DNA of 64,000 bases from an uncultured Candidatus Saccharibacteria bacterium (GTDB lineage Bacteria > Patescibacteriota > Minisyncoccia > Phycocordibacterales > JACOZG01), in the NCBI GenBank assembly GCA_964460805.1, contig CAYWPU010000001.1:38624-102623 (forward strand), given 5' to 3'. The position numbers were made by a program, and so were the translations under genes. Below, in pieces: positions 3,426 to 42,201 of this stretch; positions within the stretch are counted from its first letter, which is position 1, and each line of letters starts with the position of its first letter. Below the pieces are notes generated by a model. The model had not been told where the DNA came from and did no database searches. It saw only the letters and a program-made list of their open reading frames with translations.

Positions 3426-3797
3426 ATGCGTTACCTCGGCATTGATTACGGCGCGCGGCGGATCGGCCTGGCTCTCTCGGACGAGTCGGGCAAAATTGCT
3501 TTCCCAGAAGCTGTATTAAGTAATGACAAATACACACTGGGTAAAATAAAAAAGCTGTGTGAAGAGAAAAAAGTGGGGAAAATAATCTTGGGCGAATCGC
3601 TGAACTATAAGCGCGAGGCTAATCTGATCATGGGCGAAATAAAAACTTTTAGAGAAAAACTGGGCGCAGAAATTGGATTAGAAATTATCTTGGAGCCAGA
3701 ATGGCTCACTTCTGCACTCGCCGCGCGCTCGGGCGCAGATAATCTGGACTCAGCGGCCGCTGCATTAATTCTCCAAACTTATTTGGATAGGTTATAA
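3426..3797 (+). CDS. yqgF: putative pre-16S rRNA nuclease / Holliday junction resolvase-like protein YqgF (RuvX)
   Basis: MRYLGIDYGARRIGLALSDESGKIAFP N-terminus is the classic YqgF/RuvX signature. Confidence 0.8.
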   Translation: MRYLGIDYGARRIGLALSDESGKIAFPEAVLSNDKYTLGKIKKLCEEKKVGKIILGESLNYKREANLIMGEIKTFREKLGAEIGLEIILEPEWLTSALAARSGADNLDSAAAALILQTYLDRL

Positions 3798-3806
3798 TAA
3801 ATAGCG

Positions 3807-4877
3807 ATGAGAACATCGCTCTTCAGTCGCCTCTTCCCGCCGCCACATTATCTCGCCATGCCCGCCACTGGCTTAGATCTCTCGGACCGCTCGCTCAAGT
3901 TTGTCACCTTCCGGCACAATCACGGACAGCGACGCTTGCACCAGTTTGGCCAAGTGGAGATCCCCTTAGACGTGGTGCAGTCCGGGCAGATCAAAGACAA
4001 ACCAGCGCTGGTGAAGATCCTGCAGGACTTGAAGGCAAAGTGGCAACTGGAGCACGTGATCATGGCCTTGCCGGAAGAGCATGCTTACATTGTGCGCATG
4101 CCACTTCCACTTGTCCCGCCCAGCGAGCAGCGCGAGAGTATAGAGCTACAGCTGGAAGAACATGTGCCGCTCAAGGCAAGCGAGGCGATCTTTGACTACG
4201 AGCCGGTGGCGGGCAAGAAGAACGCGGCGATTGTTTCTGTCTTCCCCGCCAACCTGGTGCAAGATTATGAAGAAGTTTTACTGGAAGCGGGACTATTGCC
4301 GCTGGCGGGCGAGATTGAAGCGCAAGCAATCGCCCACGCCGTGGTGCCAGCCACCGAGCGGGAAACAGTGCTGGTGGTAGACTTTGGTAAAACCAGAACC
4401 GGTTTCTTTATCGTCCGCGAGCGACAGGTCCTCTTCACCTCCACCACTCGCCAGCTTGGCGGCGACCTCATCACGCTCGCAATCAGTAAAAATTTAAATC
4501 TGCCAACCGAGCAAGCCGAGACACTCAAGCTCAAGCAAGGACTCTTGAGCGGGAACGAACAAGAGCTCTTGGCCGTTGCCCTGGTGCCGGCTCTCTCAGC
4601 ACTCTGTGATGAGATCAAGAAGATAGATAATTACTGGAACAGACATCTTGAAGCGGCTGGCGCTGGCGAGGGCCGGATTGCCCGAGTGATCCTCTGCGGT
4701 GGCGAGGCCACATTGCCTGGCTTAGTTGAGTACCTCAGCAACCGCTTGTCGCTCCCAGTCGCGTTGGCCCAAGTGTGGACCAACGCGCTAGATAGTGAGG
4801 CAAACGTGCCAGAGTTGCCGCACAGGCAATCGCTCCGTTATGCCACCGCCATCGGGCTGGCCCTGCGCTCGCATTAA
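3807..4877 (+). CDS. pilM: type IV pilus assembly protein PilM (actin-like ATPase fold)
   Basis: 356 aa. VVDFGKTRTGFFIV and ILCGGEATLPGLVEYL segments are typical of the PilM/FtsA-like fold. It is followed by PilN and PilO-like genes. Confidence 0.75.
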   Translation: MRTSLFSRLFPPPHYLAMPATGLDLSDRSLKFVTFRHNHGQRRLHQFGQVEIPLDVVQSGQIKDKPALVKILQDLKAKWQLEHVIMALPEEHAYIVRMPLPLVPPSEQRESIELQLEEHVPLKASEAIFDYEPVAGKKNAAIVSVFPANLVQDYEEVLLEAGLLPLAGEIEAQAIAHAVVPATERETVLVVDFGKTRTGFFIVRERQVLFTSTTRQLGGDLITLAISKNLNLPTEQAETLKLKQGLLSGNEQELLAVALVPALSALCDEIKKIDNYWNRHLEAAGAGEGRIARVILCGGEATLPGLVEYLSNRLSLPVALAQVWTNALDSEANVPELPHRQSLRYATAIGLALRSH

Positions 4878-4901
4878 GCTCGCCACATCATCACCAGCAC
4901 C

Positions 4902-5441
4902 ATGATCAATTTATTATCCCCCACACAGAAAGCACTCATCCAGCAGGAGTACCGCGCCCGGCGGCGGATCACCGCTGGCGGTCTCTGCCTAGGGATCCTG
5001 GTGATGTCGCTGGTGCTGGGTGGCCTGCTATCTTCCCACATACAGATCAAACAAGATGAGGCTACTGCTGCCTTGCTCCAGTTGGATAATAAAGACTTAG
5101 AGAACACCAGCCAGACACTCCAGACGGCGGCCAGTGCTGTGGCCATAGCCCGCGCCGGAGCGGACCGCGAATCGCTCTCGGAGCTCTTTACTCTCGTTGC
5201 CGAGGTCACGCCAGAGGCAATACAGATCACCGAGCGGCAGTGGCAAGCACCAAACGGCGAGACGCCAGCCAGTCTCAGCCTAAGTGGAGAAGCGGCAGAT
5301 CGCCAGAGCTTGCTTAATTTTATCGCTCAGTTGGAGAGTCTGGAACGCGCGGCTCAAGTGGAGTCTCCCATTGCCAACCTGATCCAGAGTCGGGACAGCA
5401 AATTTAATATTGAGATCACCCTCAAGCCTTATGAGCAATAA
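4902..5441 (+). CDS. pilN: PilN-like type IV pilus biogenesis protein (single N-terminal TM)
   Basis: Position directly after pilM. N-terminal RRRITAGGLCLGILVMSLVLGGLL TM then a periplasmic domain. Assignment rests on context and architecture. Confidence 0.5.
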   Translation: MINLLSPTQKALIQQEYRARRRITAGGLCLGILVMSLVLGGLLSSHIQIKQDEATAALLQLDNKDLENTSQTLQTAASAVAIARAGADRESLSELFTLVAEVTPEAIQITERQWQAPNGETPASLSLSGEAADRQSLLNFIAQLESLERAAQVESPIANLIQSRDSKFNIEITLKPYEQ

Positions 5442-5934
5442 ACATCACCAGAGATCACGGCTCGCCTGGATCATGCTGGCTCTCAACTGTGCCGCCGCGC
5501 TCTTGCTGGCTGGTCTAATTTGGTACTTGCAGGCAGAAGGTCGCGAACTGAGAGATCTCTACACCAATCTGCGCAACGCCCGCGCTAGCACCAGCGAGCA
5601 ACAACAAGCAGAGGCACTGCTAGAGGAAACTGTCAGCCAGCGCGCCCTACTTGCCCAGTCTATTGTGACAGAAGCCAGCCTGCCAGTATTTATTGAAACA
5701 CTAGAACAAGTCGCCAGCGCGAGCGGTGTGGCGCTAGAGCTCACCCAAGCTACTCCCGGGAGCGAGAGTAATCCAAATATTGTCCTCGCTTTCACCATTG
5801 AGGGCAGTCAGGGTGCAATGAGATACTTTACCCAGCTCCTAGACGCACTGCCGCACCAGATGCAGATCAGGCACGCGCGCTTTGGCATCGAGAACGCGGA
5901 TTATTATATAGAACTACTTGGCCATGGAATTTAA
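5410..5934 (+). CDS. pilO: PilO-like type IV pilus biogenesis protein
   Basis: Third gene of the pilM-N-O arrangement. N-terminal TM LAWIMLALNCAAALLLAGLIWYL followed by a coiled-coil. Confidence 0.45.
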   Translation: MRSPSSLMSNKHHQRSRLAWIMLALNCAAALLLAGLIWYLQAEGRELRDLYTNLRNARASTSEQQQAEALLEETVSQRALLAQSIVTEASLPVFIETLEQVASASGVALELTQATPGSESNPNIVLAFTIEGSQGAMRYFTQLLDALPHQMQIRHARFGIENADYYIELLGHGI

Positions 5935-6229
5935 ACTCGCAAAAATTAACTGGCGCTTTTGGCAAAACAATCAGAGGGAACTGGTCTCGCCGGAGCGCGA
6001 CTGGCGCTTGATGTGCGCACTTGCCGCGCTGGCGATTATTGCTATCTTTGTTCTCTACTTTTGGGCCGGACGGGTGGTAGATAATATGGAAGATAATCTA
6101 AATCTAGAGGCTCAGGACACTGGTAATCCTGTAAAATTATTTACGCGCGAGGAAATTGCTAAGCATGCTGAAGGCCTGCAACTCAAACAAGCAAAGTTTG
6201 AGCGGCTAATAGGCGGCGAGAGCAACTAG
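5918..6229 (+). CDS. hypothetical small membrane protein, last gene of pilMNO cluster
   Basis: 103 aa, one TM (LMCALAALAIIAIFVLYFWAG). It overlaps the pilO end, suggesting translational coupling. Confidence 0.4.
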   Translation: MAMEFKLAKINWRFWQNNQRELVSPERDWRLMCALAALAIIAIFVLYFWAGRVVDNMEDNLNLEAQDTGNPVKLFTREEIAKHAEGLQLKQAKFERLIGGESN

Positions 6230-6232
6230 TTG

Positions 6233-6304
6233 TCCTCCCGGAGGGAATCGAACCCCCATAGCCGGCTTAGAAGTCCGGAGTTCTATCCATTGAACTACGG
6301 GAGG
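6233..6304 (-). tRNA. tRNA-Arg (TCT)
   Basis: Acceptor CCTCCCG/CGGGAGG, D-arm GTTC-AATGGATA-GAAC, anticodon loop CTTCTAA, T-arm GGGGG-TTCGATT-CCCTC, A73. Confidence 0.8.
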
Positions 6305-6306
6305 AG

Positions 6307-6380
6307 GGTGGGCGGTAAGGGATTTGAACCCCTGACCTTCGCTGTGTAAAAGCGCTGCTCTACCACTGAGCTAACCGCCC
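6307..6380 (-). tRNA. tRNA-Val (TAC)
   Basis: GGGCGGTTAGCTCAGTGGTAGAGC start, anticodon loop TTTACAC, T-arm AGGGG-TTCAAAT-CCCTT, acceptor ACCGCCC, A73. Confidence 0.8.
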
Positions 6381-6485
6381 AAATTTATTTAACTATTCCA
6401 GAATAAGCGAGAAAGGAGAAATTTACAAACTTACCAGCCTATAGCAAGCGGGAGACGGGTCTCATTCACCAATCTCATAGACAAG

Positions 6486-7925
6486 TTAGATTTTCTGCAA
6501 ACCACCAATGAAGCGACAAGAGTTTCTGCTTTCTGCGTCTTGGACCTTGTTACACAACGAGTAATCGTTTGTCGCCCCAGCAAGAATCTGATAACAATTA
6601 TCCCTTGTATCAGAGTGGGCAACCAGAGCACAAAGGCCAACGTTGTATGGCTCTTCGGTAGCTATAAATGAGTAACATGTATCGCGGGTATCGTCGCCAA
6701 TAATCTTGGCACACAGAAGGGGATCCTTCTTGGCTTCCCCCACTGCGCTATAACAGGAGTCCACCGACAAGACATCAGCGGGGTCAATCTTCTGACATAT
6801 GGTGGCATCTCTACTAGCCTCGGCTACATCCTTGTAGCAACCCGCGGTCAGCTTGGTAAGCCGACCATTAACCCGATACTCCACAATTGAGTGGCAGTGG
6901 GATAGATCCCCGCTAGCCACTGCGGCGCTGGTATAACAGAAGTTAGCTCTTGGAGTAGCGATCTGTTCGCAAATTTCTACATCTCCTGTTCGTTGGACAA
7001 TAAAACCCAAACAACTATCTAGTTTGTTCTGGTCAAAACTGTAAATCTGGCACATGGATGGATCTCTCAAAGCTGCCGCTGTAGCCAAGTAACAACGTTC
7101 GCGCATATTGGATGCCGATAACTGATTACACACTTGAGAATTTTTGGCCGAAAAAGCAACTCTGTCTACACAAATATATCCCTTGGTATCTCCAAAGCCT
7201 TGGCAGAGAGAGATATCAGTGCTGGAAATAGCAACCCGGGAGAAACACTCCGCCTTAACGTCGTTATAATCTGCAACCTGCTCACAGAACTGACTAGACG
7301 GTATCTCTGGCAAAAATCCCAGTAAACATTCCTGCGTCTGACGAACATCAAGGTTATACTCTTTTTTCGTACAGTCAGCGACAGACATAGGAGAAACCGA
7401 GCGAACAGATTTAACATGAAATAGAGACGAGACGTTGAGAAACACCACAACCAAGAGCAACACGAAAACGATGATCCGACTCTTGAAGTAACTAGGAACT
7501 TCTGTAGGCGAAGTCAAGGTGGTGGATGAAAAAGGGACTGAGCTATGGAATAGTCCAATCGTTTTCTTTCTTAAACCTAACCAAATAACTTCCAAAAAGG
7601 CAACGGAAAGAAAACCAATACCGTAGGTGGGCACAGTATTTCTGGAAAGTAAGCTGGAGACCCCGGACAGGAACATGAGTAAAAAAATTAAGGAGATGAT
7701 TCGAGCCCAATTCTTAAAGAACCAGAGTCCGATATTAACGATTACTCCCAGAACAACCATCAAGATCATTCCTCCCATAAACAACAAAATATCTTTTCCC
7801 GCTTGAGCAGCACCAGGACTCATAAAGAAGATTGGCGACAATAGTAGTGGTAACACAAAATAAGTCGCCATAATAACCAGATTCACCGATACAAAGAGCC
7901 TGGTAATTAACCTGTCGAGATTCAT
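6486..7925 (-). CDS. polytopic membrane protein with C-terminal cysteine-rich tandem-repeat domain
   Basis: About 5 N-terminal TM helices. The C-terminal ~280 aa consists of about 12 degenerate ~24-aa units, each with two Cys (e.g. DTRDTCYSFIATEEPYNVGLCALVAHS / DTRDNCYQILAGATNDYSLCNKVQDAES). Confidence 0.6.
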   Translation of the reverse strand: MNLDRLITRLFVSVNLVIMATYFVLPLLLSPIFFMSPGAAQAGKDILLFMGGMILMVVLGVIVNIGLWFFKNWARIISLIFLLMFLSGVSSLLSRNTVPTYGIGFLSVAFLEVIWLGLRKKTIGLFHSSVPFSSTTLTSPTEVPSYFKSRIIVFVLLLVVVFLNVSSLFHVKSVRSVSPMSVADCTKKEYNLDVRQTQECLLGFLPEIPSSQFCEQVADYNDVKAECFSRVAISSTDISLCQGFGDTKGYICVDRVAFSAKNSQVCNQLSASNMRERCYLATAAALRDPSMCQIYSFDQNKLDSCLGFIVQRTGDVEICEQIATPRANFCYTSAAVASGDLSHCHSIVEYRVNGRLTKLTAGCYKDVAEASRDATICQKIDPADVLSVDSCYSAVGEAKKDPLLCAKIIGDDTRDTCYSFIATEEPYNVGLCALVAHSDTRDNCYQILAGATNDYSLCNKVQDAESRNSCRFIGGLQKI

Positions 7926-7962
7926 TGGTAAAGTATAACATAATAAACTAATATGATGACTG

Positions 7963-8625
7963 ATGAGATTTAATATGCTCTACGAGGACGGCGATGTGCT
8001 GGCACTAGATAAACCCAGTGGCGTGATAGTCACTGATTTATTAGCCGAGGTGCTGGAGAAATATCCCAGCGCCCTGCTCGCCCACCGCCTAGATAGAGAC
8101 ACTACCGGCGTGCTAGTCATCGCCAAGCATGAACGCGCTCACAAGTATCTCAAGCGGCAGTTCCAAGAGCGGAAGGTGAAAAAGTTGTACCAGGCGATCT
8201 TGGTGGGTACGCTCTTGCCAGAGGGCGGCCGGCCCACCGGGACGATCAACGTGCCGATTGGCCGACACCCCAGCGATGCGCGGCGGCGCGCCACGGGTAA
8301 AAAAGCAGAAGAGCCCAGGCGCGAGGCGGTAACGCATTACCGGATCATTAAGAATTACCCAAACTTCACGCATGTGGAAGCGCGGCCAGAAACAGGCCGC
8401 ACCCACCAGCTCCGTGTCCACTTCAAGCAACTCGGCTACCCCATTGCCCACGACACACTCTACGCGCCTTTCACCACCCGGCCGCCAGTGATCAAGCGCC
8501 AGGCTCTGCACGCCCACAAGCTGGCGCTCAAGCTGCCGAGTGGCGTGGAACAAGAATTCACCGCGCCAATCCCGGCTGACTTCCAGCAAGCGCTTGGTGC
8601 CCTTGATACTTTAGCCAGCTCGTGA
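7963..8625 (+). CDS. RluA-family pseudouridine synthase
   Basis: LALDKPSGV and HRLDRDTTGVLVIAKH catalytic Asp motif. No N-terminal S4 domain, so probably starts at internal MLYEDGD. Confidence 0.8.
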   Translation: MRFNMLYEDGDVLALDKPSGVIVTDLLAEVLEKYPSALLAHRLDRDTTGVLVIAKHERAHKYLKRQFQERKVKKLYQAILVGTLLPEGGRPTGTINVPIGRHPSDARRRATGKKAEEPRREAVTHYRIIKNYPNFTHVEARPETGRTHQLRVHFKQLGYPIAHDTLYAPFTTRPPVIKRQALHAHKLALKLPSGVEQEFTAPIPADFQQALGALDTLASS

Positions 8626-9089
8626 TAGATTATGCGGGCTTAAACAATATGATTAAAACCTCTCCCGTAGACATGGACAAGCGCGCCAAGCTGGACCTCC
8701 GAGCTGGGTACACTGTGCGCGTGTGGCAAAAGATCCAAGAAAAGGGCAAAACCCGCCTGCAAGCCTTTGAGGGTCTGGTGATCGCGCGCAAGCATGGCAC
8801 CGAGGCCGGGGCGACCTTCACTGTGCGGCGAATGTCCGGCACCATGGGCGTGGAGAAGATCTTCCCGCTCTACTCGCCTAATATTGATAAAATAGAGATC
8901 ATCAAGAAGTCCCGCGTCCGCCGCGCCAAGCTCTATTATGTGCGCGATAAGGCTGCCAAAGAGATCCGCCGCCAGATGCGCAACCTGATCTCACTCAAAG
9001 AAGAGAAAGAGGCCAGCGCTGAAGTAGCTGACGAGGCAAAAGATGAGAATAAAGAGAGCGGAAAAGAAACGGCTGAAGCGACAGTCTAG
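8622..9089 (+). CDS. rplS: 50S ribosomal protein L19 with acidic/lysine-rich C-terminal extension
   Basis: YTVRVWQKIQEKGKTRLQAFEGLVIARKHGTEAGATFTVRRMSGTMGVEKIFPLYSPNIDKIEIIKKSRVRRAKLYY matches the L19 core. True start may be MIKT at 8649. Confidence 0.85.
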   Translation: MIDYAGLNNMIKTSPVDMDKRAKLDLRAGYTVRVWQKIQEKGKTRLQAFEGLVIARKHGTEAGATFTVRRMSGTMGVEKIFPLYSPNIDKIEIIKKSRVRRAKLYYVRDKAAKEIRRQMRNLISLKEEKEASAEVADEAKDENKESGKETAEATV

Positions 9090-11361: not shown

Positions 11362-12157
11362 AGTAGAGACGCTCAAGCGCGAGCTGGCGCTGATTGCAGG
11401 TAAAAAGTTTAAAACTGCCAGCGTTTTCTCTGCTCAACTCAAAAACCGGAAAATCATCAGCGTAGAGAGGCGCGCCAAAATTTTAATTATTAACTTAGAT
11501 TCTGAGCAAAAACTGCTGGTGCACCTCAAGATGACGGGCCAGCTAATTTACCAGCCAAAAATTGGCAAATTAATAATTGGCGGGCACCCGGAGCAGAATC
11601 CCTTCAAGTACACCCGCGCGACTTTCACTTTTACCGACAACTCAAAATTATACTTCAATGACTTGCGCAAATTTGGCTGGCTCAAATTACTCAAACCGAT
11701 TCACGCTGGCAAAATCTTAGATAAACATGGCGTTGAGCCGTTATCTAAACTATTTACGTTCAAAAATTTCCAAGATTTATTGCAAAGATATCCAAACCGG
11801 AAAATAAAACAATTTCTCTTAGATCAAAGTTTAATTGCCGGCCTGGGGAATATCTATGTGGACGAGGCTTGCTTCTTGGCCAGAATCCTGCCAACCAGAC
11901 TGGTAAAAAGTCTAACCAAATTAGAGCAGAAAAATCTGCACGGGAGTATTATCAAAGTTCTCAAACTTTCTATTTCTAAAAAGGGTACTTCGGCAAAAAA
12001 TTATGTGCGGAGCGACGGCACCAAAGGTGGCTTTGTCCCCTATCTCAATGTCTATGGCCGCAAAGGTGAACTGTGTAAGCGGTGTAAAAAGTCTAAAATC
12101 ACAAAAACAAAACTAAACGGCAGAGGAACGCATTTTTGTGAGAATTGTCAGAAATAA
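11345..12157 (+). CDS. mutM: formamidopyrimidine-DNA glycosylase (Fpg/MutM)
   Basis: MPELPEVETLKRELA N-terminus with catalytic Pro2/Glu3, and C-terminal zinc finger CKRC...CENC. Confidence 0.85.
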   Translation: MPELPEVETLKRELALIAGKKFKTASVFSAQLKNRKIISVERRAKILIINLDSEQKLLVHLKMTGQLIYQPKIGKLIIGGHPEQNPFKYTRATFTFTDNSKLYFNDLRKFGWLKLLKPIHAGKILDKHGVEPLSKLFTFKNFQDLLQRYPNRKIKQFLLDQSLIAGLGNIYVDEACFLARILPTRLVKSLTKLEQKNLHGSIIKVLKLSISKKGTSAKNYVRSDGTKGGFVPYLNVYGRKGELCKRCKKSKITKTKLNGRGTHFCENCQK

Positions 12158-12159
12158 AC

Positions 12160-12660
12160 TTACAAATCAAGTAGCCGGAAAATCGCAATACCCGCCGCCA
12201 CGCTCACGTTGAGCGACTCCTTCTCTCCTCTCATCGGGATTTCTATTATTTTGTCGCAAATTTGCAAGATTTCTGGTGTGATTCCTTCCACTTCGTTGCC
12301 CAAAATTAACGCTAAATTCTCATCCTTATTTTCTCGCGCAAATTGTTTATAATCCACACTGTTTTTGTCCTGCTCTAATGCAATTATTTTAAATTTTTCT
12401 CGTTTTAATCTATTTATTATTTCAGACAAACTTTCTACTTCCCCGCCTTTGGCGAGGCGGGTCTGCCACTTCACTATTTTCTCTGCGCCCAGTGCAGTTT
12501 TAGCAATCTCTTTATTCTCACGCTCAAAATTATCTCGCGGCGCAGGTGTGTAACCAGTGAGAAATATCTTTTTAACTCCAGCACATTCTGCCGTACGGAA
12601 AATAGAACCAACGTTGTGGCTACTCCGGATATTATGTAGAATTAGTGTGATGTTGAGCAT
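12160..12660 (-). CDS. SpoU/TrmH-family RNA 2'-O-methyltransferase
   Basis: LILHNIRSSHNVGSIFRTAECAGV and SLNVSVAAGIAIFRL motifs of SPOUT methyltransferases. Confidence 0.8.
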   Translation of the reverse strand: MLNITLILHNIRSSHNVGSIFRTAECAGVKKIFLTGYTPAPRDNFERENKEIAKTALGAEKIVKWQTRLAKGGEVESLSEIINRLKREKFKIIALEQDKNSVDYKQFARENKDENLALILGNEVEGITPEILQICDKIIEIPMRGEKESLNVSVAAGIAIFRLLDL

Positions 12661-16054: not shown

Positions 16055-16819
16055 TTATACCAAGCCCGCTTCCACCTCGCCAGCCTGGGCGCGATATAAG
16101 CAATAATCGCAACCCTCGCTCGCCTCTGGCAAGTGCTTGCTCACTAGGCAAGCTTTAATTTGTAAAATAGCCGGCTCTATCCAATCTGTTTTGCCCGTGT
16201 AAGGGATCAGTTTAACATCAAATTCTAGCTTGCCATCAAAGGCTTCCGCATCGCGCTTGCCGTTCACATACACAAAGTAGCCAGTATCAGAAACTTTAAA
16301 ATCGTTCTTTCTTAGCAAATACTGATAGAACTCCATCTGGCGCTTATAACCACCTTGCCACTCAGCGTCTAGATTAACCTCATCATCTTTGCTCGTCGCC
16401 TTGTAATCCACCACGATCAATTCGTCGTCTTTATTTTGCCAGACATCATCCACACCACCAGTTAGTAATAAATTAGTCTGCTCATGCAAGTACTGCACGC
16501 CCGCGCGCAGTGAGTCGCGCCACTTATCCATCTCCGGATGATTGAACGGCACAGCCTCCAAGCCATAAGCGCGCATAAGCGGATGCGCTGTCTGCTCTGT
16601 TCTGTGCACGTCAAACTCCTTCTTGAGCAAGTGGTCCACAGCAGAATTGAGATTGAAAGGGAAGCCCGGCGGGCGGTCCACGCCCAGTCTCCGGTCTAAA
16701 TAAAAACATCTGGGACATTCTAAGAATCTATCCACCTTGCTCCGGCTGAGTTTGAAGGGTTCGCCAGATGCCGGATCAAAAATATTCCGCGTCCGCTTGC
16801 CTTTGTAATATTGGGACAT
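16055..16819 (-). CDS. PD-(D/E)XK nuclease superfamily protein, Cas4/RecB-like with 4-Cys cluster
   Basis: N-terminal CPRC, motif II D in GGVDDV, motif III in IVVDYKATS (D/E-x-K), C-terminal CDYC. No CRISPR array nearby. Confidence 0.55.
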   Translation of the reverse strand: MSQYYKGKRTRNIFDPASGEPFKLSRSKVDRFLECPRCFYLDRRLGVDRPPGFPFNLNSAVDHLLKKEFDVHRTEQTAHPLMRAYGLEAVPFNHPEMDKWRDSLRAGVQYLHEQTNLLLTGGVDDVWQNKDDELIVVDYKATSKDDEVNLDAEWQGGYKRQMEFYQYLLRKNDFKVSDTGYFVYVNGKRDAEAFDGKLEFDVKLIPYTGKTDWIEPAILQIKACLVSKHLPEASEGCDYCLYRAQAGEVEAGLV

Positions 16820-20796: not shown

Positions 20797-22491
20797 ATGC
20801 TCACGTTCAACGATACCAGAGATAAGCGCGTGGACGAACTGCATAGTCAGGAGGCGGAGAGCCTTGCTCAGATGCTCTCCAGCAAATACGACCTCCCCTA
20901 CATTGATCTCTCTAAATTCCCCATCAACACAGACGCGCTGAAGGTCCTACCAGAGGAGGAAGCGCGGCGGGCTAATCTTGCGGCTTTTAAGATCAATGGG
21001 AAAAATTTATTTCTCGTTACTATGTCTCCGGCAAAAGAGGAGACCAAAGCGGCCCTGCAAGACCTGCGGGAGAAGAATTACCAGCTCCACGTCTACCTCG
21101 GCTCGGAGGCTAGTCTCACCCGCGCTTGGGAGCGCTACCCGGAGATCTCGCGCTCGCGGCGGACGGAGGCCGGCGTGATTGATATCAGCGACGAGGCAAT
21201 TGCCGAGTTTGCCAAGCAGATCAGCGATGTAGACAGCTTGAACAAAGCCTTTAGCACCGAGGGCGTGGCGGCGCTCTCCTCCGGCGGTGTCTCTAATCTC
21301 TTGGAGGTGCTACTCGCCGGCGCGATTGTGACCGACGCCTCAGACATCCACATTGAGCCGGAGACTGAGCGCGTGCGCTTGCGCTTCCGCCTAGATGGCG
21401 TGCTACACGATGTGAGCTTCCTAGAGCCTCGCCTCTACCGCCACATGATCTCGCGGATCAAATTACTCTCGGGATTAAAATTAAATGTGCAGAAGTCAGC
21501 CCAAGACGGGCGGCTCAGTATCAGACTGGAAGATAACGATATTGAGATCAGAACGTCTATCCTGCCAGGTGCCTACGGAGAATCTGTCGTCTTGCGTATC
21601 TTGAATCCTAAAGCGATTGCGGTCACTTTTGAAACATTAGGTATAGAGCCAGCGCTCTTTGAGATCGTGAAGAAGCAGATCACCAAGCCAAACGGCGCGA
21701 TCTTCCTCACCGGCCCCACTGGCTCGGGTAAAACAACCACGCTTTACTCTTTTCTCCGCTATATCTCCACTGGCGAGAACAAGACGATCACGATAGAAGA
21801 TCCAATAGAGTATCACTTGAAAGGGATCAGCCAGACGCAGGTTAACCCAGATAAAAATTACACTTTTCTCACCGGCCTCAGATCAGCTCTGCGCCAAGAT
21901 CCAGATATCATCATGGTCGGCGAGATCCGAGATAAAGAAACGGCAAAAATTGCGATCAACGCCTCGCTCACCGGCCACCTGGTCTTCTCTACTCTGCACA
22001 CCAATAACGCCGCCGGCACGATCCCGCGATTGATAGACTTAGACGTGAATCCGAAAATTATTGATTCGGCGCTTAACTTAGCAATGGCGCAGAGATTGCT
22101 CAGGAATCTTTGTCGCGCTTGCAAGCAAGAGAGCACACCCACAGCAGAAGAGCAGAAGTTGATAGACGGCGTGGTGGCGTCTATCAAGGAGAAGCGGCCA
22201 GATCTCGCTCCCACGCAGACGAGCAAGATCTGGCGGGCGGCAGAGTCCGGCTGTGCGGCCTGCAACCACACGGGTTACAAGGGTCGGCAGGGTATCTTTG
22301 AGGCTGTGCTGATAGACGAGCTGGTGGCACCGCTACTGCTCAGTAACCCGAGCGAGCGGGAAATAAAAATCGCCGCCAAAGGGCAGCGCATACTGGATAT
22401 GCGGCAAGATGGTATGCTAAAGGTGCTCGCCGGCGAGACAGCACTGGAGGAACTGGCCCGCGTGGTGGATATAAACGAGGAGATTATCTAG
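20797..22491 (+). CDS. pilB: type IV pilus assembly ATPase PilB (GspE family)
   Basis: Walker A GPTGSGKTTT, Asp box and His box regions, tetracysteine CRAC...CAAC motif. 564 aa. Confidence 0.85.
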   Translation: MLTFNDTRDKRVDELHSQEAESLAQMLSSKYDLPYIDLSKFPINTDALKVLPEEEARRANLAAFKINGKNLFLVTMSPAKEETKAALQDLREKNYQLHVYLGSEASLTRAWERYPEISRSRRTEAGVIDISDEAIAEFAKQISDVDSLNKAFSTEGVAALSSGGVSNLLEVLLAGAIVTDASDIHIEPETERVRLRFRLDGVLHDVSFLEPRLYRHMISRIKLLSGLKLNVQKSAQDGRLSIRLEDNDIEIRTSILPGAYGESVVLRILNPKAIAVTFETLGIEPALFEIVKKQITKPNGAIFLTGPTGSGKTTTLYSFLRYISTGENKTITIEDPIEYHLKGISQTQVNPDKNYTFLTGLRSALRQDPDIIMVGEIRDKETAKIAINASLTGHLVFSTLHTNNAAGTIPRLIDLDVNPKIIDSALNLAMAQRLLRNLCRACKQESTPTAEEQKLIDGVVASIKEKRPDLAPTQTSKIWRAAESGCAACNHTGYKGRQGIFEAVLIDELVAPLLLSNPSEREIKIAAKGQRILDMRQDGMLKVLAGETALEELARVVDINEEII

Positions 22492-29061: not shown

Positions 29062-30168
29062 CTAGCGATTAAGCGGCATGATGAGATAACGGAAAGTGTC
29101 GTCCCGCAAGCCGGTGAGCAAGATCGGCTTGGTCCGGCCGTTGAATTGTAATTGGACTTGATCATCAGCCAGCGCCTGCAGGCCATCTAGGAGATAGCGG
29201 AGGTTAAAGCTTACTGTTAACTCCTCACCCGATATTTCCGCCGGCAGGAGGCTGGTATTCTCCCCCACCTCGCCGTTTTGGCTTGTTAGCTCTAGAGTCC
29301 CGTCTTCCGGCCTAACTTTAAGTGTCACATGATTCAGTCTATCAGTAAAAATCTGCGATAATCTCAGGCTATTTAAGAGCACCTCTCTATCTAGAGTCAC
29401 TTGAGTAAGAGACTTCGCCGGCATAATTTGCCGGTAATCGGGGAAGATACCATCAACCAAACGAGAGGTAACGGTTAATTGATCGCTCTTGATCGTGAGC
29501 TGGTTGCGGTTATGGTGCCAGCTCATGTCTCCGGATTGCGCTTCAAGCAACCGCATTATTTCTGCCACATTCCTGATCGGCAAAATTAACCTGACTTCTT
29601 CGCCCGTTTCCACAGGATTAACTGCGAGACGCTTTTCTGCTAAACGGAAAGAGTCTGTGGCGACTAAATACATGTTACTTTCACTCGTGTGGAGATAGAT
29701 ACTGGCGATCTCCGGCTTAATATCAGTGAGTGCGGCGGCGTAAGAGGTAGCGCGAGCGGCGGAAATAAATTCGCCAGCTGCCAGACTAAACTCCCCCACC
29801 TGATCCAACTCAGGTAGAGAGGGAAACTCTTCTCCAGACTGAACTTTCACTACTGTTGAACTATTAGCCGTAGCCACCATCAAGTTAGCCCCTTCTGTGG
29901 CCAAAGTTATCTTATCAACGCCGCTGATAGTCGCGAGGAAATTGTGTAAAACCGCTCCCGGGACCAATATCTCGCCAGGCGCGCTCACCTTAGCCGGCAA
30001 ACGCCACTCGCAACCAAGATCAAGATTAGTAGATCTGATCACCAGTGAGTGCTCGCTGGCCGAGAGTAAAATCTGACCCAAGATCGGCAAAGATAAATTT
30101 TTACCAGTCACCCGTTCAGCCAGGCCGATAGCTTGCTTAAGTCTTTCCCTCTGACATTCCAGTTTCAT
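29062..30168 (-). CDS. dnaN: DNA polymerase III beta sliding clamp
   Basis: MKLECQRERLKQAIGLAERVTGKNLSLPILGQILL N-terminus, three-domain length (368 aa), directly downstream of dnaA. Confidence 0.9.
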   Translation of the reverse strand: MKLECQRERLKQAIGLAERVTGKNLSLPILGQILLSASEHSLVIRSTNLDLGCEWRLPAKVSAPGEILVPGAVLHNFLATISGVDKITLATEGANLMVATANSSTVVKVQSGEEFPSLPELDQVGEFSLAAGEFISAARATSYAAALTDIKPEIASIYLHTSESNMYLVATDSFRLAEKRLAVNPVETGEEVRLILPIRNVAEIMRLLEAQSGDMSWHHNRNQLTIKSDQLTVTSRLVDGIFPDYRQIMPAKSLTQVTLDREVLLNSLRLSQIFTDRLNHVTLKVRPEDGTLELTSQNGEVGENTSLLPAEISGEELTVSFNLRYLLDGLQALADDQVQLQFNGRTKPILLTGLRDDTFRYLIMPLNR

Positions 30169-30343
30169 AGCTATTAATTAATTATATTTAATCTAAATTT
30201 ATTATTACTATTAGTGCTGTGAATTAGTCTTGTCTTTATTTCTAGCCCTATTTTGTTATTTAACATTGTGGATTATTTTTGGTAAGTTTTTTAATTCCAA
30301 ATTTATGCTCAAGTTATCCCGTGTTATCCATAGTTTATCCCTG
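30169..30343. promoter_or_regulatory. AT-rich dnaA-dnaN intergenic region with DnaA-box-like 9-mers (oriC candidate)
   Basis: TGTGGATTA at 30267-30275 is the reverse complement of TAATCCACA. TTATCCATA at 30324-30332, TTATCCCGT at 30314-30322, TTATCCCTG at 30335-30343. Strongly AT-rich from 30170 to 30300. Confidence 0.5.
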
Positions 30344-31681
30344 ATATATCAAGTTCCTGATCTGCTCTATCTCTTGCTGTAGTGGTTGATTGATGAGGAT
30401 GTCTTTTTTAATCTTCTCGTAAGCGTGGATTACTGTGGTGTGATCCCTCCCGCCCAACTTCTGGCCAATATACGGGTAAGAAGTGTTAAAGTCTTCGCGC
30501 AACAAGTACATGATCACTTGCCGGGGCTTAACCACTTCTTTCTTTCTCGTTTTCTCGTATAAGTTTTTCTCGTTAATGTTATAGAAATTAGCCACAGCTT
30601 CCGCCACATCTTTCACTGAGACCATCTTCTTGGGCTTAATATTATTTTTGATCAGTGTTTTGATCTCGTTCAAGTTTAAGTGTCGGTTCTTGAGCTGGCT
30701 CTGGCAGACTACAGTATTCAAGCACCCCTCTAGTTCTCTGATATTATCTTGGATAACTTCAGCGATATATTCCAGCACCTCATTGGCTAGCAATAACTGA
30801 TGTTGCTTGATCTTGTTCTTGAGGATGGCCAGGCGAGATTCGTAGTCCGGTTTGATCACATCCACAATCATGCCGCCCTCAAAGCGGGAACGCAGGCGCT
30901 CTTCCAGGCCGGTGATATATTTTGGCGATTTATCAGACGAGAAGATGATCTGCCGGTTGCTCTCGTGGAGATGATTGAAGAGATGGAACAGCTCTTCTTG
31001 CGTCTTCTCTTTATTAGAGAAAAACTGGACGTCATCCATAATCAACACGTCGTATTTGCGGTATTTCTCTTTAAACGCATTAATTCTATTCTGTTGCATT
31101 GAGTTCACGTAATCCATCGTGAACTGCTCAGAAGTGACGTAATAGACTTTCTTATTCGGATGCGTTTTCTTCACATAATTACCCAGGGCTTGGATCAAGT
31201 GTGTTTTGCCAAGGCCGGTACTGCCGTAGATAAAGAGCGGATTATAGATCTGGCCCAGCTTCTGCGACGAGGCCCGGACGGCTGCGTGGGCTAGCTCATT
31301 AAATGGCCCAACGGTGAAAGTCTCAAAGATATATTTAGGATTGAGATTATCTTCTCGGTTAGTGTACATCTCCAAGTTCATCTGGGGACTGGCCGGCATT
31401 GGAGCGATCGCCGCGGGCTGCTCTACCGTCTCGCCCTTGGTAATGGTGTACTCTATTGCCCTTACCTCCGGCACCAAGTGGCGGAGCGACTTGAGGATAG
31501 ACTTATGATACTTTTTATACAGCCAGTCTTTAACAAAAGCGTTGGGTACGCCCAGGTAGATAACGCCATCGCTATCCTTAATAATCCGCGTACTGCGGAA
31601 CCAGGTGCCAAAATTGGCCTTAGATACTTCCAGTTCAATCTCCACCAACGCGTTTTCCCAGAGCGTTTTGTGGTCTAGCAT
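30335..31681 (-). CDS. dnaA: chromosomal replication initiator protein DnaA
   Basis: Walker A GSTGLGKTHL, AAA+ motifs, C-terminal DNA-binding domain (HTTVIHAYEKI). Confidence 0.9.
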   Translation of the reverse strand: MLDHKTLWENALVEIELEVSKANFGTWFRSTRIIKDSDGVIYLGVPNAFVKDWLYKKYHKSILKSLRHLVPEVRAIEYTITKGETVEQPAAIAPMPASPQMNLEMYTNREDNLNPKYIFETFTVGPFNELAHAAVRASSQKLGQIYNPLFIYGSTGLGKTHLIQALGNYVKKTHPNKKVYYVTSEQFTMDYVNSMQQNRINAFKEKYRKYDVLIMDDVQFFSNKEKTQEELFHLFNHLHESNRQIIFSSDKSPKYITGLEERLRSRFEGGMIVDVIKPDYESRLAILKNKIKQHQLLLANEVLEYIAEVIQDNIRELEGCLNTVVCQSQLKNRHLNLNEIKTLIKNNIKPKKMVSVKDVAEAVANFYNINEKNLYEKTRKKEVVKPRQVIMYLLREDFNTSYPYIGQKLGGRDHTTVIHAYEKIKKDILINQPLQQEIEQIRNLIYQG

Positions 31682-31740
31682 GACAGGAATTATATGCTCT
31701 TGCTCTCAACTATCCAACTAGCGCAATCTGTTAATAATCA

Positions 31741-31760
31741 GTGGATTAATGTGGATAAAC
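31741..31760. promoter_or_regulatory. DnaA boxes upstream of dnaA / in rpmH promoter region
   Basis: TGTGGATAA at 31750-31758 is the reverse complement of the perfect consensus TTATCCACA. The adjacent GTGGATTAA at 31741-31749 is a 1-mismatch copy. Confidence 0.55.
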
Positions 31761-31776
31761 ATGCTAGACTCTTGCC

Positions 31777-31911
31777 ATGTCACGAACATACCAACCCAAA
31801 AAGCGCAAACGCAAGACTACTCACGGCTTCCTTGTCCGCAGTGCCTCCAAGGCTGGCAAGCGGGTGATCAAACGCCGCCGGCAGAAGGGTCGCAAGCGCC
31901 TCGCCGTTTAG
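31777..31911 (+). CDS. rpmH: 50S ribosomal protein L34 (not in ORF track because <60 aa)
   Basis: My translation of 31777-31911: [44 protein letters not shown]. Followed by rnpA as in the conserved rpmH-rnpA-yidC arrangement. Confidence 0.85.
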
Positions 31912-31915
31912 CCAG

Positions 31916-32248
31916 ATGCTCCCCCGCGTTAACCGCCTGAGCCGGGCCGAGATTGATGAGATTGTCAGGCGCGGCCGGAGGGCTGGCCGGAGGCCGCTCG
32001 GCTTGCGTTATCTGCTGGTGCCGGGCCCAGCGCGCTTTGCCATAGTAGTGCCAGCTAAAGAGATTAGGCAATCTGTGGCCCGCCATCGTCTCAAGCGCCG
32101 GATCCGTGCCCTAATCCGCGAGCAAGCAGGGCAGTTTAAGCCCAGCCGGAGCTGTCACGCTGTGATCTTTGCTGGTAGCCCAGCCTCTCAGCTCCCTTTC
32201 CCCGATCTGCGCGAGCAATTAACTCAATTATTTAAACAAATCCAATGA
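31916..32248 (+). CDS. rnpA: ribonuclease P protein component
   Basis: MLPRVNRLSRAEIDEIVRRGRR, basic, 110 aa. Sits between rpmH and yidC. Confidence 0.8.
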   Translation: MLPRVNRLSRAEIDEIVRRGRRAGRRPLGLRYLLVPGPARFAIVVPAKEIRQSVARHRLKRRIRALIREQAGQFKPSRSCHAVIFAGSPASQLPFPDLREQLTQLFKQIQ

Positions 32249-32976
32249 TTTCCAGCGCTTTCCGCCACATCTTCTTCCTCCCTCTCTATAATGCCCTCGT
32301 CTGGCTCAGCACAGTGTTGCCTGGGGCCGATATTGGCTTGGCGATCATTATCCTCACTCTGGCTGTCCGCTTTATCCTCTTCCCGCTCCAGCATCGCATG
32401 AGCAAGACCCAGAGGGCGCTCAAGTTGCTTGAGCCCAAGCTGGCTGAGCTTAAGGCTAAATATGCTGATGACAAGAGCGAGCAGGCCAAGAAGCTGATGG
32501 AGCTCTACCGCGAGCATGGGGTCAATCCTTTTGCCGGCTTTGTGCTCCTCCTCATCCAGTTGCCCATTCTCTTAGCTTTGTACTGGGTCTTCCGTGATAG
32601 CTTTGTGATCCAAACCGACTGGCTCTACTCGTTTATCACTCCCCCGGCCGCCTTGGGTACCCACTTCCTCGGCTGGCTGGATATCACCACCAAGAGCTGG
32701 CCTCTAGCCCTGATAGTGGGTATTACCCAGTTCATCCAGATGAAGCTGGTGATGCCTCCCAGCGCCCCTATTGCCCCCGATGCGCCCAAGTCCCTCTCTG
32801 CCGATCTCCAGCGCAGTATGAGCCTGCAGATGCGTTACTTTATGCCTCTGATGGTTACTTTCATTGCCTTTGGCTTGCCAGCTGCTATCCCCCTCTACTG
32901 GATAACCAGCAATATCTTTGCCATTGGCCACGAGCTCTTAGTTAACAGAAAAGCGCGGGACTTAGCTAGTGATTAG
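32245..32976 (+). CDS. yidC: membrane protein insertase YidC (short Oxa1-type form)
   Basis: LAIIILTLAVRFILFPL first TM with conserved Arg, KLAELKAKYADDKSEQAKKLMELYREHGVNPFAG amphipathic region. 243 aa. Confidence 0.85.
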   Translation: MISSAFRHIFFLPLYNALVWLSTVLPGADIGLAIIILTLAVRFILFPLQHRMSKTQRALKLLEPKLAELKAKYADDKSEQAKKLMELYREHGVNPFAGFVLLLIQLPILLALYWVFRDSFVIQTDWLYSFITPPAALGTHFLGWLDITTKSWPLALIVGITQFIQMKLVMPPSAPIAPDAPKSLSADLQRSMSLQMRYFMPLMVTFIAFGLPAAIPLYWITSNIFAIGHELLVNRKARDLASD

Positions 32977-34822: not shown

Positions 34823-34828
34823 TTGTTT

Positions 34829-35203
34829 TTATTGACCCAGATTGCCCAGTGTACCCAGGGTGTTCACAATATCTGGGTTAATCTCGTTTAAGATTACCCA
34901 GGCGACCAGTGCGAGCAATAGACCCCAGAGCGCGCTCTTGATGCGCTCGGTGCCCTCACTCTTGCCGCCCGGCTTCATGCTCAGCACATGCTGCAGTCCG
35001 CCCCAAGTAACCATCACCACCGCCAGAGTGATTGCCACGCCCAGGAAGATGGGAAAGGCCACCTGCACATATTCACCAATAGAGCTGATCTCTGATCCGG
35101 CAGAGCCGGTGCCAGTATTGAGGGGCGCCAGGAGGTTAACTTGGTTCTGGGCCAGAGCCTTTTCTGTAAAAAAATTAAGTAGATTACTTAGCATGTTTTT
35201 CAA
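34829..35203 (-). CDS. VirB2/TrbC-like T4SS pilin candidate
   Basis: 124 aa. N-terminal leader, then two hydrophobic segments (VQVAFPIFLGVAITLAVVMVTWGGL and IKSALWGLLLALVAWVILNEI) separated by a short charged loop, the classic VirB2/TrbC architecture. By topology only. Confidence 0.45.
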   Translation of the reverse strand: MKNMLSNLLNFFTEKALAQNQVNLLAPLNTGTGSAGSEISSIGEYVQVAFPIFLGVAITLAVVMVTWGGLQHVLSMKPGGKSEGTERIKSALWGLLLALVAWVILNEINPDIVNTLGTLGNLGQ

Positions 35204-35931: not shown

Positions 35932-36251
35932 TTTACTAGAGGCAACTTAATACCCAGCTTGTCTTCTGATTTTACCATACCGATGATAACGATTACACCC
36001 ACAGTGACTGACGGTAAGACGCTGAGTATAGGAATGATTTCTACAAGAGCGCTCACGCCGGCTGTGGCCAGGCGCTTGATGGTAAAGGGACTCACTCCCA
36101 ATAGCAGTAACCAAATACCAATCACAATCCATCCCATTGCCCCCGCGCCGGGTATCAACAGACTTAAGAGATCAAAAAACAGAGCCACCACGGGCATGAA
36201 GATGATAGTGGCTAGGCCGATACGGTTTCTCTTTGGTTGTTCTTCACTCAT
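35928..36251 (-). CDS. small polytopic membrane protein of T4SS-like operon
   Basis: 107 aa, 2-3 TM. Overlaps both neighbours by 4-8 nt, suggesting translational coupling. Confidence 0.45.
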   Translation of the reverse strand: MSEEQPKRNRIGLATIIFMPVVALFFDLLSLLIPGAGAMGWIVIGIWLLLLGVSPFTIKRLATAGVSALVEIIPILSVLPSVTVGVIVIIGMVKSEDKLGIKLPLVK

Positions 36252-38073: not shown

Positions 38074-38088
38074 GTTTTTAATTTATTT

Positions 38089-38739: not shown

Positions 38740-38758
38740 CCGCTTAATTGTAACAGAC

Positions 38759-39196: not shown

Positions 39197-39201
39197 AATT
39201 T

Positions 39202-39741: not shown

Positions 39742-39743
39742 AA

Positions 39744-42176: not shown

Positions 42177-42201
42177 TTAGTAAATATAGTGATATTTTAC
42201 T

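Follow-up and report, generated by a model that had tools for sequence, protein, structure and literature searches.

What does a membrane protein that ends in a long, regularly spaced array of cysteines do in a Candidatus Saccharibacteria bacterium? The question is raised by a gene at 6486-7925 on the minus strand of the window, by which we mean the whole 64,000-nucleotide stretch of DNA that was analyzed. In the ORF list, it is an uninterrupted, ATG-started ORF of 479 aa plus the stop codon, and an identical 479-aa product with the same neighbors is encoded on five independent metagenome contigs. It lies divergent to an RluA-type (PseudoU_synth_2) gene at 7963-8625, as originally predicted. 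The original prediction had also described it as isolated from other surface-protein genes, which holds only in part: pilM, a PilN-like ORF, and a PilO-like ORF (3807-5934, plus strand) are convergent with it, with a 103-aa ORF and two tRNA genes in between. The gene is otherwise ordinary, standing alone among housekeeping neighbors with no pathway context, and scans for promoters and terminators in its flanks gave background levels only. The gene and its membrane part comprise the following features, with all transmembrane (TM) segments taken from Kyte-Doolittle windows >1.6 and their coordinates confirmed by translation.

6486..7925, minus strand: complete coding sequence (ORF list; identical product in metagenome contigs; homologues of the repeat domain)
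7410..7898, minus strand: polytopic membrane domain, aa 10-172 (Kyte-Doolittle windows; loop charges)
7824-7898, minus strand: TM1
7716-7793, minus strand: TM2
7644-7706, minus strand: TM3
7572-7634, minus strand: TM4
7482..7571, minus strand: predicted cytoplasmic linker, aa 119-148, predicted to be disordered (charge count; pLDDT <50)
7410-7481, minus strand: TM5

Consistent with an earlier count of about five TM helices ahead of a Cys array, five hydrophobic segments (approximately aa 10-34, 45-70, 74-94, 98-118, and 149-172) precede the Cys-rich C-terminal part. The predicted inner loops carry approximately 8-9 Lys or Arg residues versus 3 on the outer loops, and this positive-inside distribution places the C terminus outside. 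The protein is thus predicted to adopt an N-in/C-out topology with an extracytoplasmic array. An outside location is also favored by the relatives described below, 138 of 150 of which place a signal or anchor before their repeats. The linker between TM4 and TM5 is rich in K/R and in Ser, Thr, and Pro, with 4 K/R versus 1 D/E. AF2 models the membrane domain as helices, with a pLDDT of 65-85 for TM1-3 and <50 around TM4. A likeness to this domain was found in one relative only (P0071); it is weak (E=7e-4 within a 160-sequence set) and includes a common G-x-N/G-LW-x-FK-x-WA motif. No homology was detected to the polytopic domain of a Parcubacteria relative.

The array itself makes up the last ~295 residues, which are Cys-rich and periodic as had been claimed, and the three repeat peptides quoted at that time are all present in the ORF.

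6489..7373, minus strand: Cys-repeat domain, aa 185-479, predicted to be an extracytoplasmic alpha-solenoid (Cys map; shuffles; AF2)

The domain has a pI of 4.9 and holds 22 Cys, all within aa 185-470, rather than the 26 first reported. Cys accounts for 7.5% of its residues, compared with 0.45% across 15 other window proteins. The tandem organization stands, while the proposed ~12 units of ~24 aa give way to 11 Cys pairs in ~10.5 units of ~26 aa. The Cys-to-Cys gaps are, in order, 15, 14, 13, 14, 11, 14, 12, 14, 13, 14, 11, 14, 19, 14, 14, 14, 12, 15, 12, 14, and 12; a gap of 14 therefore alternates with one of 11-19, giving a unit length of 25-33 aa (family mode, 26 aa). Twenty of the 21 gaps fall within 11-15 and ten equal 14, and neither count was reached in any of 100,000 composition-preserving shuffles, the best of which had 12 gaps in the 11-15 range. 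As a second measure, we built a 32-column unit HMM from 1,005 units, all taken from proteins other than the window protein. It scored the domain at 146.4 bits, while 1,000 shuffles scored 0.65±1.94 with a maximum of 9.4. BLOSUM autocorrelation peaked at lags of 14, 27-28, 53, and 78 (z = 3.1-4.2). Shuffles, unit HMM, and autocorrelation thus all place the repeats, whose statistical support the original prediction had left to be established, far beyond chance.

Contrary to what its first description implied, the repeat is not confined to this protein. An exhaustive HMMER search of 1.84 billion representatives returned at least 2,199 family cluster representatives (clusters at 50% identity) at E<=1e-3, 475 of them at E<=1e-10, and phmmer E-values from the window protein to its relatives reach down to 7e-49. 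A word-indexed homolog search, which under-samples the family, had recovered only 2 and 7 proteins. Among the best 150 of the 2,199 matches, all align in the repeat region except the window protein's own fragment (P0001), and no full-length relative of more than ~35% identity was found among the 1.84 billion representatives outside the protein's own cluster. From 1,196 units, we derived the family consensus CYxx[VI]AxxxxDxS[IL]C[ED]KIxDxxx[KR]Dx, in which C0, Y1, V/I4, A5, D10, I/L13, C14, and I17 are conserved and positions 2, 3, 6-9, and 18-22 vary. The dominant Cys gaps in the family are 14 (n=1736) and 12 (n=1321), and the window protein fits the membership pattern C-[YFL]-x-x-[VIL]-A-x4-[DN]-x2-[IL]-C-x-[KR]-[IL] with alternating gaps of 14 and ~12. 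The earlier remark that the repeat family was not recognized agrees with the databases: at E<=10, Pfam-A, NCBIfam, and the PDB (sequence and profile) gave no meaningful model for the window protein, its repeat domain, relative P0002, 88 full-length relatives, or 31 domain segments. A literature search likewise found no description of a 26-residue Cys-pair repeat.

To place the family among organisms, we compared a synthetic consensus array of frequent 8-mers with GTDB genomes and recovered six named loci, in Ca. Parcubacteria, Iainarchaeum, and Woesearchaeota; further family proteins belong to an 'archaeon' MAG and to Nanoarchaeia. [quoted passage not shown] PolA places the window itself in Patescibacteria, close to Nomurabacteria and Vogelbacteria. 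In two PolA relatives, at 82% and 73% identity, the sequence covered stops before the expected position of the gene: one contig ends too soon, and the 10-kb flank of the other reaches L19, just short of that position. A GTDB genome scan with the window protein as query gave no match, and neither did a scan of viral contigs with the consensus array. Across the six loci, no conserved gene neighborhood pointed to a ligand or pathway. A PPIase adjoins the family gene at two of them, an anecdotal observation.

The AF2 model of the repeat domain is a purely alpha-helical solenoid (pLDDT 90.8, pTM 0.82) in which 15-residue and 6-residue helices alternate, a pattern reproduced in a full-length model from an independent alignment. 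The ~15-residue helix of each unit bears the first Cys and the ~6-residue helix the second. Apart from one 8-residue beta-hairpin in unit 7 (aa 350-357, window 6855-6878; E350-352 and E355-357), which appears in both AF2 models, all predicted secondary structure is helical. Between the two architectures suggested earlier, a solenoid or a knottin-like stack, the models favor the former and speak against the latter. Cys repeats of the insect-type antifreeze or beta-helix kind, which are beta-strand repeats of ~12 residues with Cys ladders, do not match a helical unit with a period of 26 aa.

How the cysteines pair can be read from the way family arrays begin and end. Beyond aa 30, the first Cys belongs to the short-helix type in 83 arrays versus the long-helix type in 8, whereas the last is of the long-helix type in 98 versus 1; arrays that open with one Cys type and close with the other imply that the cysteines are always paired. 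The last Cys also lies <=20 aa from the C terminus in 135 of 159 family members (median 7 aa). The window protein obeys this rule, with C185 first, C470 last (9 aa from the C terminus), and an even count of 22. The start and end phase points to C-x11-C inter-unit disulfides, and we infer that the short-helix Cys pairs with the long-helix Cys of the following unit. A co-loss test of the pairing was uninformative because Cys is almost never truly lost, most apparent losses being indels in helix A, and the array phase was used instead. The putative disulfides listed below were assigned from the Cys map with the pairing phase of the family, and their peptides were verified; for unit 7, the evidence includes the Cys gap of 19 and the hairpin in both AF2 models.

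7326..7373, minus strand: putative disulfide, unit 1, C185-C200
7245..7286, minus strand: putative disulfide, unit 2, C214-C227
7170..7205, minus strand: putative disulfide, unit 3, C241-C252
7092..7130, minus strand: putative disulfide, unit 4, C266-C278
7011..7052, minus strand: putative disulfide, unit 5, C292-C305
6936..6971, minus strand: putative disulfide, unit 6, C319-C330
6837..6896, minus strand: putative disulfide, unit 7, C344-C363, with a long 18-residue loop around the predicted beta-hairpin
6753..6797, minus strand: putative disulfide, unit 8, C377-C391
6675..6713, minus strand: putative disulfide, unit 9, C405-C417
6594..6632, minus strand: putative disulfide, unit 10, C432-C444
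6516..6554, minus strand: putative disulfide, unit 11, C458-C470

The earlier view of a disulfide-stabilized array thereby gains indirect support from Cys conservation, from the pairing of array starts and ends, and from the oxidoreductases of CPR bacteria, which are reported to be enriched in an MdbA-like oxidoreductase and VKOR (bioRxiv 10.1101/335083). No thiol oxidoreductase or VKOR gene was found within the 64-kb window.

Several known systems resemble this arrangement. LRV and HEAT_PBS-type repeats have units of ~24-30 aa in which a longer alpha-helix alternates with a short or 3-10 helix, forming a right-handed superhelix, and the window protein is likewise predicted to consist of short units with a longer and a shorter helix. 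TPR and PPR proteins and designed helical-repeat solenoids (DHR, CTPR) are also among the closest known systems, although the TPR assignment (Pfam clan CL0020) calls for a 34-residue helix-turn-helix unit that matches TPR models and superposes closely, a description that the window protein does not fit. The nearest parallel in covalent logic comes from Helicobacter HcpB and HcpC, a disulfide-bridged Sel1-like subgroup that also forms an exported alpha/alpha superhelix in which each repeat carries two Cys. Their disulfides link the end of a repeat with the beginning of the following one (PMC3851747), and the pairing of short helix (i) with long helix (i+1) proposed here follows the same logic. 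Sel1 and HCP-like proteins are among the weak fold matches, yet the Sel1 family (PF08238) has units of ~36 aa rather than 26, and no Sel1 match was obtained at E<=10 for the protein, its domain, P0002, or 31 relatives, or at E<=1e-3 in 88 relatives. The 26-residue Cys-pair repeat is a new family of an architectural kind that is already known.

We hypothesize that the protein serves on the CPR cell surface as a binding scaffold that is extracytoplasmic and stapled by disulfides, a reading that we consider probable. Its five-helix membrane domain would anchor a ~295-residue extracytoplasmic alpha-solenoid of 26-residue units with the pattern [KR]-D-x-C-Y-x-x-[VI]-A-x-x-x-x-D-x-S-[IL]-C-[ED]-K-I-x-D-x-x-x. 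Each short-helix Cys would bond to the long-helix Cys that follows it (C-x10-18-C, modal C-x11-C), and 11 such inter-unit staples would lock the superhelix as in the Hcp proteins. Their oxidation would fall to MdbA/VKOR-type enzymes, which CPR bacteria are reported to have outside the cytoplasm. The result would be a rigid, oxidation-stabilized rod with its conserved face buried and its variable positions exposed, which may bind protein or envelope ligands and possibly touch a host cell. Binding at the cell surface appears the most likely role by analogy with other alpha-solenoids, and it is the weakest step of the argument.

A passive envelope element with no specific ligand, such as a rigid spacer or a wall-associated strut in a cell that lacks an outer membrane, is an unlikely alternative. 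A rod-like solenoid with covalent staples, if correctly deduced, would suit such a task, and repeat number is highly variable: the best 150 of the 2,199 matches span 15-69 Cys and 250-1034 aa, and family proteins typically have 7-30 units. One Parcubacteria relative has ~16 nearly identical units encoded by a 78-nt tandem repeat in its DNA, which resembles length-variable spacers. In the window gene, however, TRF returned 0 rows for a DNA-level tandem repeat, from which its strongly diverged units can be taken as old; their divergence and the lack of a DNA repeat suggest that the units are maintained individually and not homogenized. The high variability of exposed positions across the family also argues against a ligand-free spacer, as does the absence of wall-binding and S-layer domains from the window protein.

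It is quite improbable that the 22 cysteines are instead unoxidized thiols that coordinate metal ions (Zn, Fe, Cu, or heavy metals) or serve as an extracellular or periplasmic thiol buffer or redox sensor. The Cys density of the domain and the absolute conservation of Cys would be in keeping with such a function, and many hosts are anaerobic. Metal binding is, moreover, often assumed for uncharacterized Cys-rich archaeal domains (PMC13607799). Yet the domain contains no CxxC or His knuckles, its minimum gap is 11, and its cysteines lie 12 and 14 residues apart on helices. Nor do they form quartets: they come in pairs, and the lengths of Cys runs in the family (16, 20, 22, 24, 28, and 30) follow no multiple-of-4 rule. 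Cys4 or zinc-ribbon-type sites were rejected on the same grounds, lack of CxxC and a Cys count that is not a multiple of four. Covalent pairs would be expected to produce the phase rule for array starts and ends, and the confident model is a regular solenoid with a hydrophobic core that needs no metal.

A TM sensor, in which the solenoid senses outside and the five-helix domain and its cytoplasmic loop relay the signal as in anti-sigma/TPR sensors, is very unlikely. The polytopic membrane domain does have a 30-residue basic cytoplasmic loop, and the weak Foldseek matches include a transmembrane anti-sigma factor (8rw5, TPR domain), but the protein has no recognizable cytoplasmic output domain and no regulator gene adjoins it. 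Furthermore, conservation across the family does not extend to the TM domain. Among the best 150 of the 2,199 matches, 138 have an N-terminal signal or anchor (a hydrophobic segment) ahead of the repeats, 64 have a lipobox-like motif, and more than 90% have a signal peptide, lipobox, or single anchor only. A chance ORF or compositional artifact, in whose favor nothing speaks beyond the lack of database annotation, can be dismissed given the shuffles, the at least 2,199 homologous clusters, the identical protein in five assemblies, and the high-confidence fold prediction.

Returning to the stapled binding scaffold, it is tempting to generalize, although we regard this extension as tentative and rather doubtful: the 26-residue 'CY-A-D-C-KI' unit may define a major undescribed class of disulfide-locked surface solenoids that is largely specific to CPR and DPANN organisms, two radiations of ultra-small episymbionts, is shared across domains by gene transfer, and acts as a diversifying module (adhesin) for the recognition of hosts or partners.

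A large part of microbial diversity belongs to the CPR bacteria and DPANN archaea, most of which spend their lives attached to other cells; to our knowledge, the surface molecules behind this lifestyle are largely undescribed. The window protein represents a very large family, of at least 2,199 clusters, for which we found no Pfam or NCBIfam model, solved structure, or description in the literature. With a curated repeat model, thousands of surface proteins now listed as 'hypothetical' would gain an annotation. With its predicted compact 26-residue helical unit and inter-unit disulfide, the repeat would be an interesting natural analog of both Hcp proteins and designed helical repeats. Extracellular disulfides are less expected in the anoxic habitats in which many CPR and DPANN organisms live. 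Should those proposed here prove real, the family would offer a handle on extracellular oxidative folding in organisms that are usually considered anaerobic.

The repeat gene is an ATG-started, unbroken frame in the ORF list of the window (6486-7925, reverse strand; 479 aa). Its product has five hydrophobic segments (aa ~10-34, 45-70, 74-94, 98-118, and 149-172; Kyte-Doolittle >1.6, 19-residue window), which bears out the original prediction of about five TM helices ahead of a Cys-repeat region. Lys and Arg number ~8-9 in the N terminus and loops 71-75 and 119-148, and 3 in loops 35-44, 95-97, and 173-184, so by the positive-inside rule the protein would be N-in/C-out, and the C-terminal domain is predicted to lie outside the cytoplasm. 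The G+C content of the gene is 44.7% versus 50.3% for the window and is lower still in the TM-encoding part.

All 22 cysteines lie within aa 185-470, and their consecutive gaps (15, 14, 13, 14, 11, 14, 12, 14, 13, 14, 11, 14, 19, 14, 14, 14, 12, 15, 12, 14, 12) reveal a near-constant spacing of 14 alternating with a variable one of 11-19. Since the Cys map gives 11 pairs, the predicted 26 cysteines and 12 units of 24 aa were slightly off (22 cysteines, ~10.5 units, modal length 26 aa), while the periodicity itself stood. At least 20 gaps within 11-15 occurred in 0 of 100,000 domain shuffles (highest count, 12), as did at least 10 gaps of exactly 14 (0 of 100,000). A unit HMM trained solely on proteins other than the query scored the repeat domain at 146.4 bits versus 0.65±1.94 in 1,000 shuffles, and BLOSUM62 autocorrelation gave self-similarity peaks at lags 14, 27-28, 53, and 78. 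The Cys repeat is thus supported statistically and is a real feature of the protein.

A word-indexed homolog search returned two sequences only, a fragment identical to the query and an archaeal protein carrying the query's repeat. Exhaustive HMMER against 1.84 billion representatives returned 2,199 proteins at E<=1e-3; tightening the cutoff to E<=1e-10 left 475, and to E<=1e-30 left 4. Among the matches listed, all except the query's own fragment align within the repeat region. The unit consensus, drawn from 1,196 units in the best 150 of the 2,199 representatives, is [KR]-D-x-C-Y-x-x-[VI]-A-x-x-x-x-D-x-S-[IL]-C-[ED]-K-I-x-D-x-x-x, and the commonest Cys gaps in the family are 14 (n=1736) and 12 (n=1321). 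The same best 150 range from 250 to 1034 aa with 15-69 cysteines. The repeat had not been recognized originally, and Pfam-A, NCBIfam, and the PDB sequences likewise gave no meaningful match to the query; no annotated Cys-repeat domain was found. No model covered the repeat in 88 full-length relatives, 31 repeat-domain segments of relatives gave scattered noise only at E<=10, the family profile had zero PDB matches at E<=10, and a literature search returned no description of the 26-aa Cys-pair repeat.

AlphaFold2 modeled aa 179-479 (31-sequence alignment) with a mean pLDDT of 90.8 and a pTM of 0.82, as ~15-residue and ~6-residue helices in strict alternation, with a lone small beta-hairpin within the long loop of unit 7. 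The full-length run, made with a different set of 33 sequences, gave the same helix pattern in the repeat domain and moderate to low confidence in the membrane part. Mapped on the model, the Cys of CY..VA sits mid long helix and that of S-I-C-E-K-I in the short helix. Foldseek against the PDB returned nothing at E<=1e-3 (TM-scores <0.3), and neither did a BFVD fold search, whose weak matches include giant-virus Sel1 and "HCP-like" proteins. Together, the model and the fold searches point to an alpha-solenoid, broadly TPR-like, whose unit is unusually short and asymmetric; the predicted fold is neither a knottin-like stack nor antifreeze-like, both raised originally.

Family members hardly ever truly lose either unit Cys; almost every case that looks like a loss is an indel that shifts its position. 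The array extends to the C terminus in 135 of 159 sequences, where the last Cys is followed by a median of 7 aa. Where its type is callable, this last Cys is a long-helix one in 98 cases versus a short-helix one in 1; the first Cys past residue 30 is of the short-helix type in 83 versus the long-helix type in 8. Because arrays start on a short helix and end on a long one, full pairing is obtained only when short helix(i) joins long helix(i+1) as C-x11-C, and from this sequence pattern we infer that the disulfides would run this way; the C-x13-C alternative leaves both terminal cysteines without a partner. The query matches the start and end rule exactly, giving the following predicted pairs:

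185-200, 214-227, 241-252, 266-278, 292-305, 319-330, 344-363, 377-391, 405-417, 432-444, 458-470

An MdbA-like thiol-disulfide oxidoreductase, often beside VKOR, is reportedly enriched in CPR bacteria (bioRxiv 10.1101/335083), which makes extracytoplasmic disulfide formation plausible; no gene for either was found within the 64-kb window.

We hypothesize that the protein is a membrane-anchored, extracytoplasmic, disulfide-stapled alpha-solenoid that would offer a rigid scaffold for binding at the surface of a cell lacking an outer membrane. This overall statement is the most likely one and is held with moderate confidence; its structural description deserves considerably more, and the binding role considerably less. 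Across the family, unit positions 0, 1, 4, 5, 10, 13, 14, and 17 are conserved and make up the core, and 2, 3, 6-9, and 18-22 vary, as is usual for solenoids whose exposed surface diversifies. A ligand-free strut or spacer is unlikely, if the strongest competitor. More doubtful still is a metal or redox thiol array; Cys run lengths in the family follow no multiple-of-four rule, which argues against Cys4 metal sites. A transmembrane sensor is improbable. The family protein P0071 has the 4+1 TM layout of the query and shares its motif G-x-N-L-W-x-F-K-x-W-A, and the polytopic N terminus of a Parcubacteria relative (locus L007) is non-homologous to the query's; since N termini differ in this way, the anchor is variable and the array is the conserved module. 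Among the best 150 representatives, a hydrophobic N-terminal segment precedes the array in 138, a lipobox-like motif occurs in 64, and 9 are polytopic. An artefact is hardly conceivable, the protein recurring unchanged, beside the same neighbors, on five independent metagenome contigs.

The window encodes DnaA, DnaN, YidC, PolA, RuvABC, a Mur ligase, a class A PBP, Alr, PilM, and PilB. An NCBI/Logan protein matches its PolA at 100% identity; proteins named Patescibacteria group or Candidatus Nomurabacteria match it at 72-73%, and those of Vogelbacteria and Yonathbacteria at ~60%, so the host is a Paceibacteria-type CPR bacterium. Named family carriers are Ca. Parcubacteria, Ca. Iainarchaeum, Ca. 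Woesearchaeota, and one unclassified bacterium; a further protein comes from Ca. Nanoarchaeia, another from an "archaeon" MAG (Hainich groundwater), where it neighbors an archaeal PAN ATPase, and weaker matches from Altiarchaeales and Peribacteria. The apparent confinement to CPR and DPANN is what this small sample of named carriers showed. Neighborhoods of six family members have no conserved gene partner. A PPIase adjoins the family gene in two of the six, and a link to extracytoplasmic folding factors, seen in these two loci only, may exist. One is the P0071 locus:

L015 (contig ZHAN22-2 scaffold_6), 4532-9071: P0071 gene, between a DUF5667 plus SurA/rotamase PPIase and a second DUF5667 protein

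A 2,174-aa alpha-2-macroglobulin is encoded near P0071, and in locus L017 the second gene upstream of the family protein P0003 encodes an FKBP-type PPIase.

No tandem repeat was found at the DNA level within the repeat gene, whose units are old and have drifted apart; the protein is identical in the five assemblies. Unit number varies widely elsewhere in the family. One Parcubacteria locus is:

L007 (Ca. Parcubacteria MAG JAPLYJ010000010.1), 3431-5257: family member of 608 aa with ~16 near-identical 26-aa units

Here the near-identical units and DNA tandem periodicities of 78, 156, and 234 nt (identity 71-77%) indicate recent amplification.

As originally described, the repeat gene is oriented divergently to an rluA-type pseudouridine synthase gene, after which L19 follows. 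The gap is 37 nt with the first ATG (7963) and 49 nt with the gene callers' start on the identical contigs (product 216 versus 220 aa), and a promoter scan of 7926-7975 stayed at background level. On its other side the gene is convergent with pilM and PilN-like and PilO-like ORFs, from which a tRNA pair, overlapping no annotated feature's tail, separates it. Co-transcription with RluA/L19, the tRNAs, or the pil genes is not indicated.

6232-6381, reverse: tRNA-Arg(TCT) and tRNA-Val(TAC), head-to-tail, on the strand of the repeat gene and ~100 nt downstream of it
3807-6229, forward: type IV pilus inner-membrane platform, PilM with a Pfam PilM_2 match (8.8e-34)
4902-5441, forward: single-TM ORF after PilM, starting MINLLSP and resembling the PilN INLLP motif; no Pfam match
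5410-5934, forward: second single-TM ORF; no Pfam match
5918-6229, forward: 103-aa ORF after the pil ORFs
20797-22491: PilB/T2SSE, 15 kb from the PilM block

Elsewhere, clustering of DnaN, DnaA, and YidC at 29062-32976 suggests a chromosomal replication origin region inside the window. The block at 33545-45902 (ORFs of 425, 243, 216, and 179 aa; 810 aa, 39744-42176; 1001 aa, 42202-45207; and 232 aa) may be a type IV secretion/conjugation-like system or another CPR-specific surface system.

29062-30168, reverse: DnaN
30335-31681, reverse: DnaA
32245-32976, forward: YidC
33545-45902, reverse: large-ORF block, mostly without Pfam match
36244-38073: TraG/VirD4-like P-loop ATPase within this block
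501-1500: low-GC island (G+C 0.35-0.37 versus 0.50 in the window)
705-1436, reverse: 243-aa ORF in this island; no Pfam match
11501-12500: second low-GC dip, over a SpoU methylase gene
16055-16819, reverse: PD-(D/E)XK/Cas4-like nuclease, directly downstream of PolA
55795-56673, forward: XerC/D-type tyrosine recombinase

By analogy, the window protein would work like a disulfide-locked helical repeat of the Hcp/Sel1 type, but neither its sequence nor its unit length fits Sel1, TPR, or PPR, and for this reason it should not be filed under any of them; it belongs to a large, uncurated repeat family inside the alpha-solenoid class. The window gene itself has no informative genomic context, and what is noteworthy is the size of the family, its apparent confinement to two ultra-small episymbiont radiations, and its predicted extracellular disulfides.
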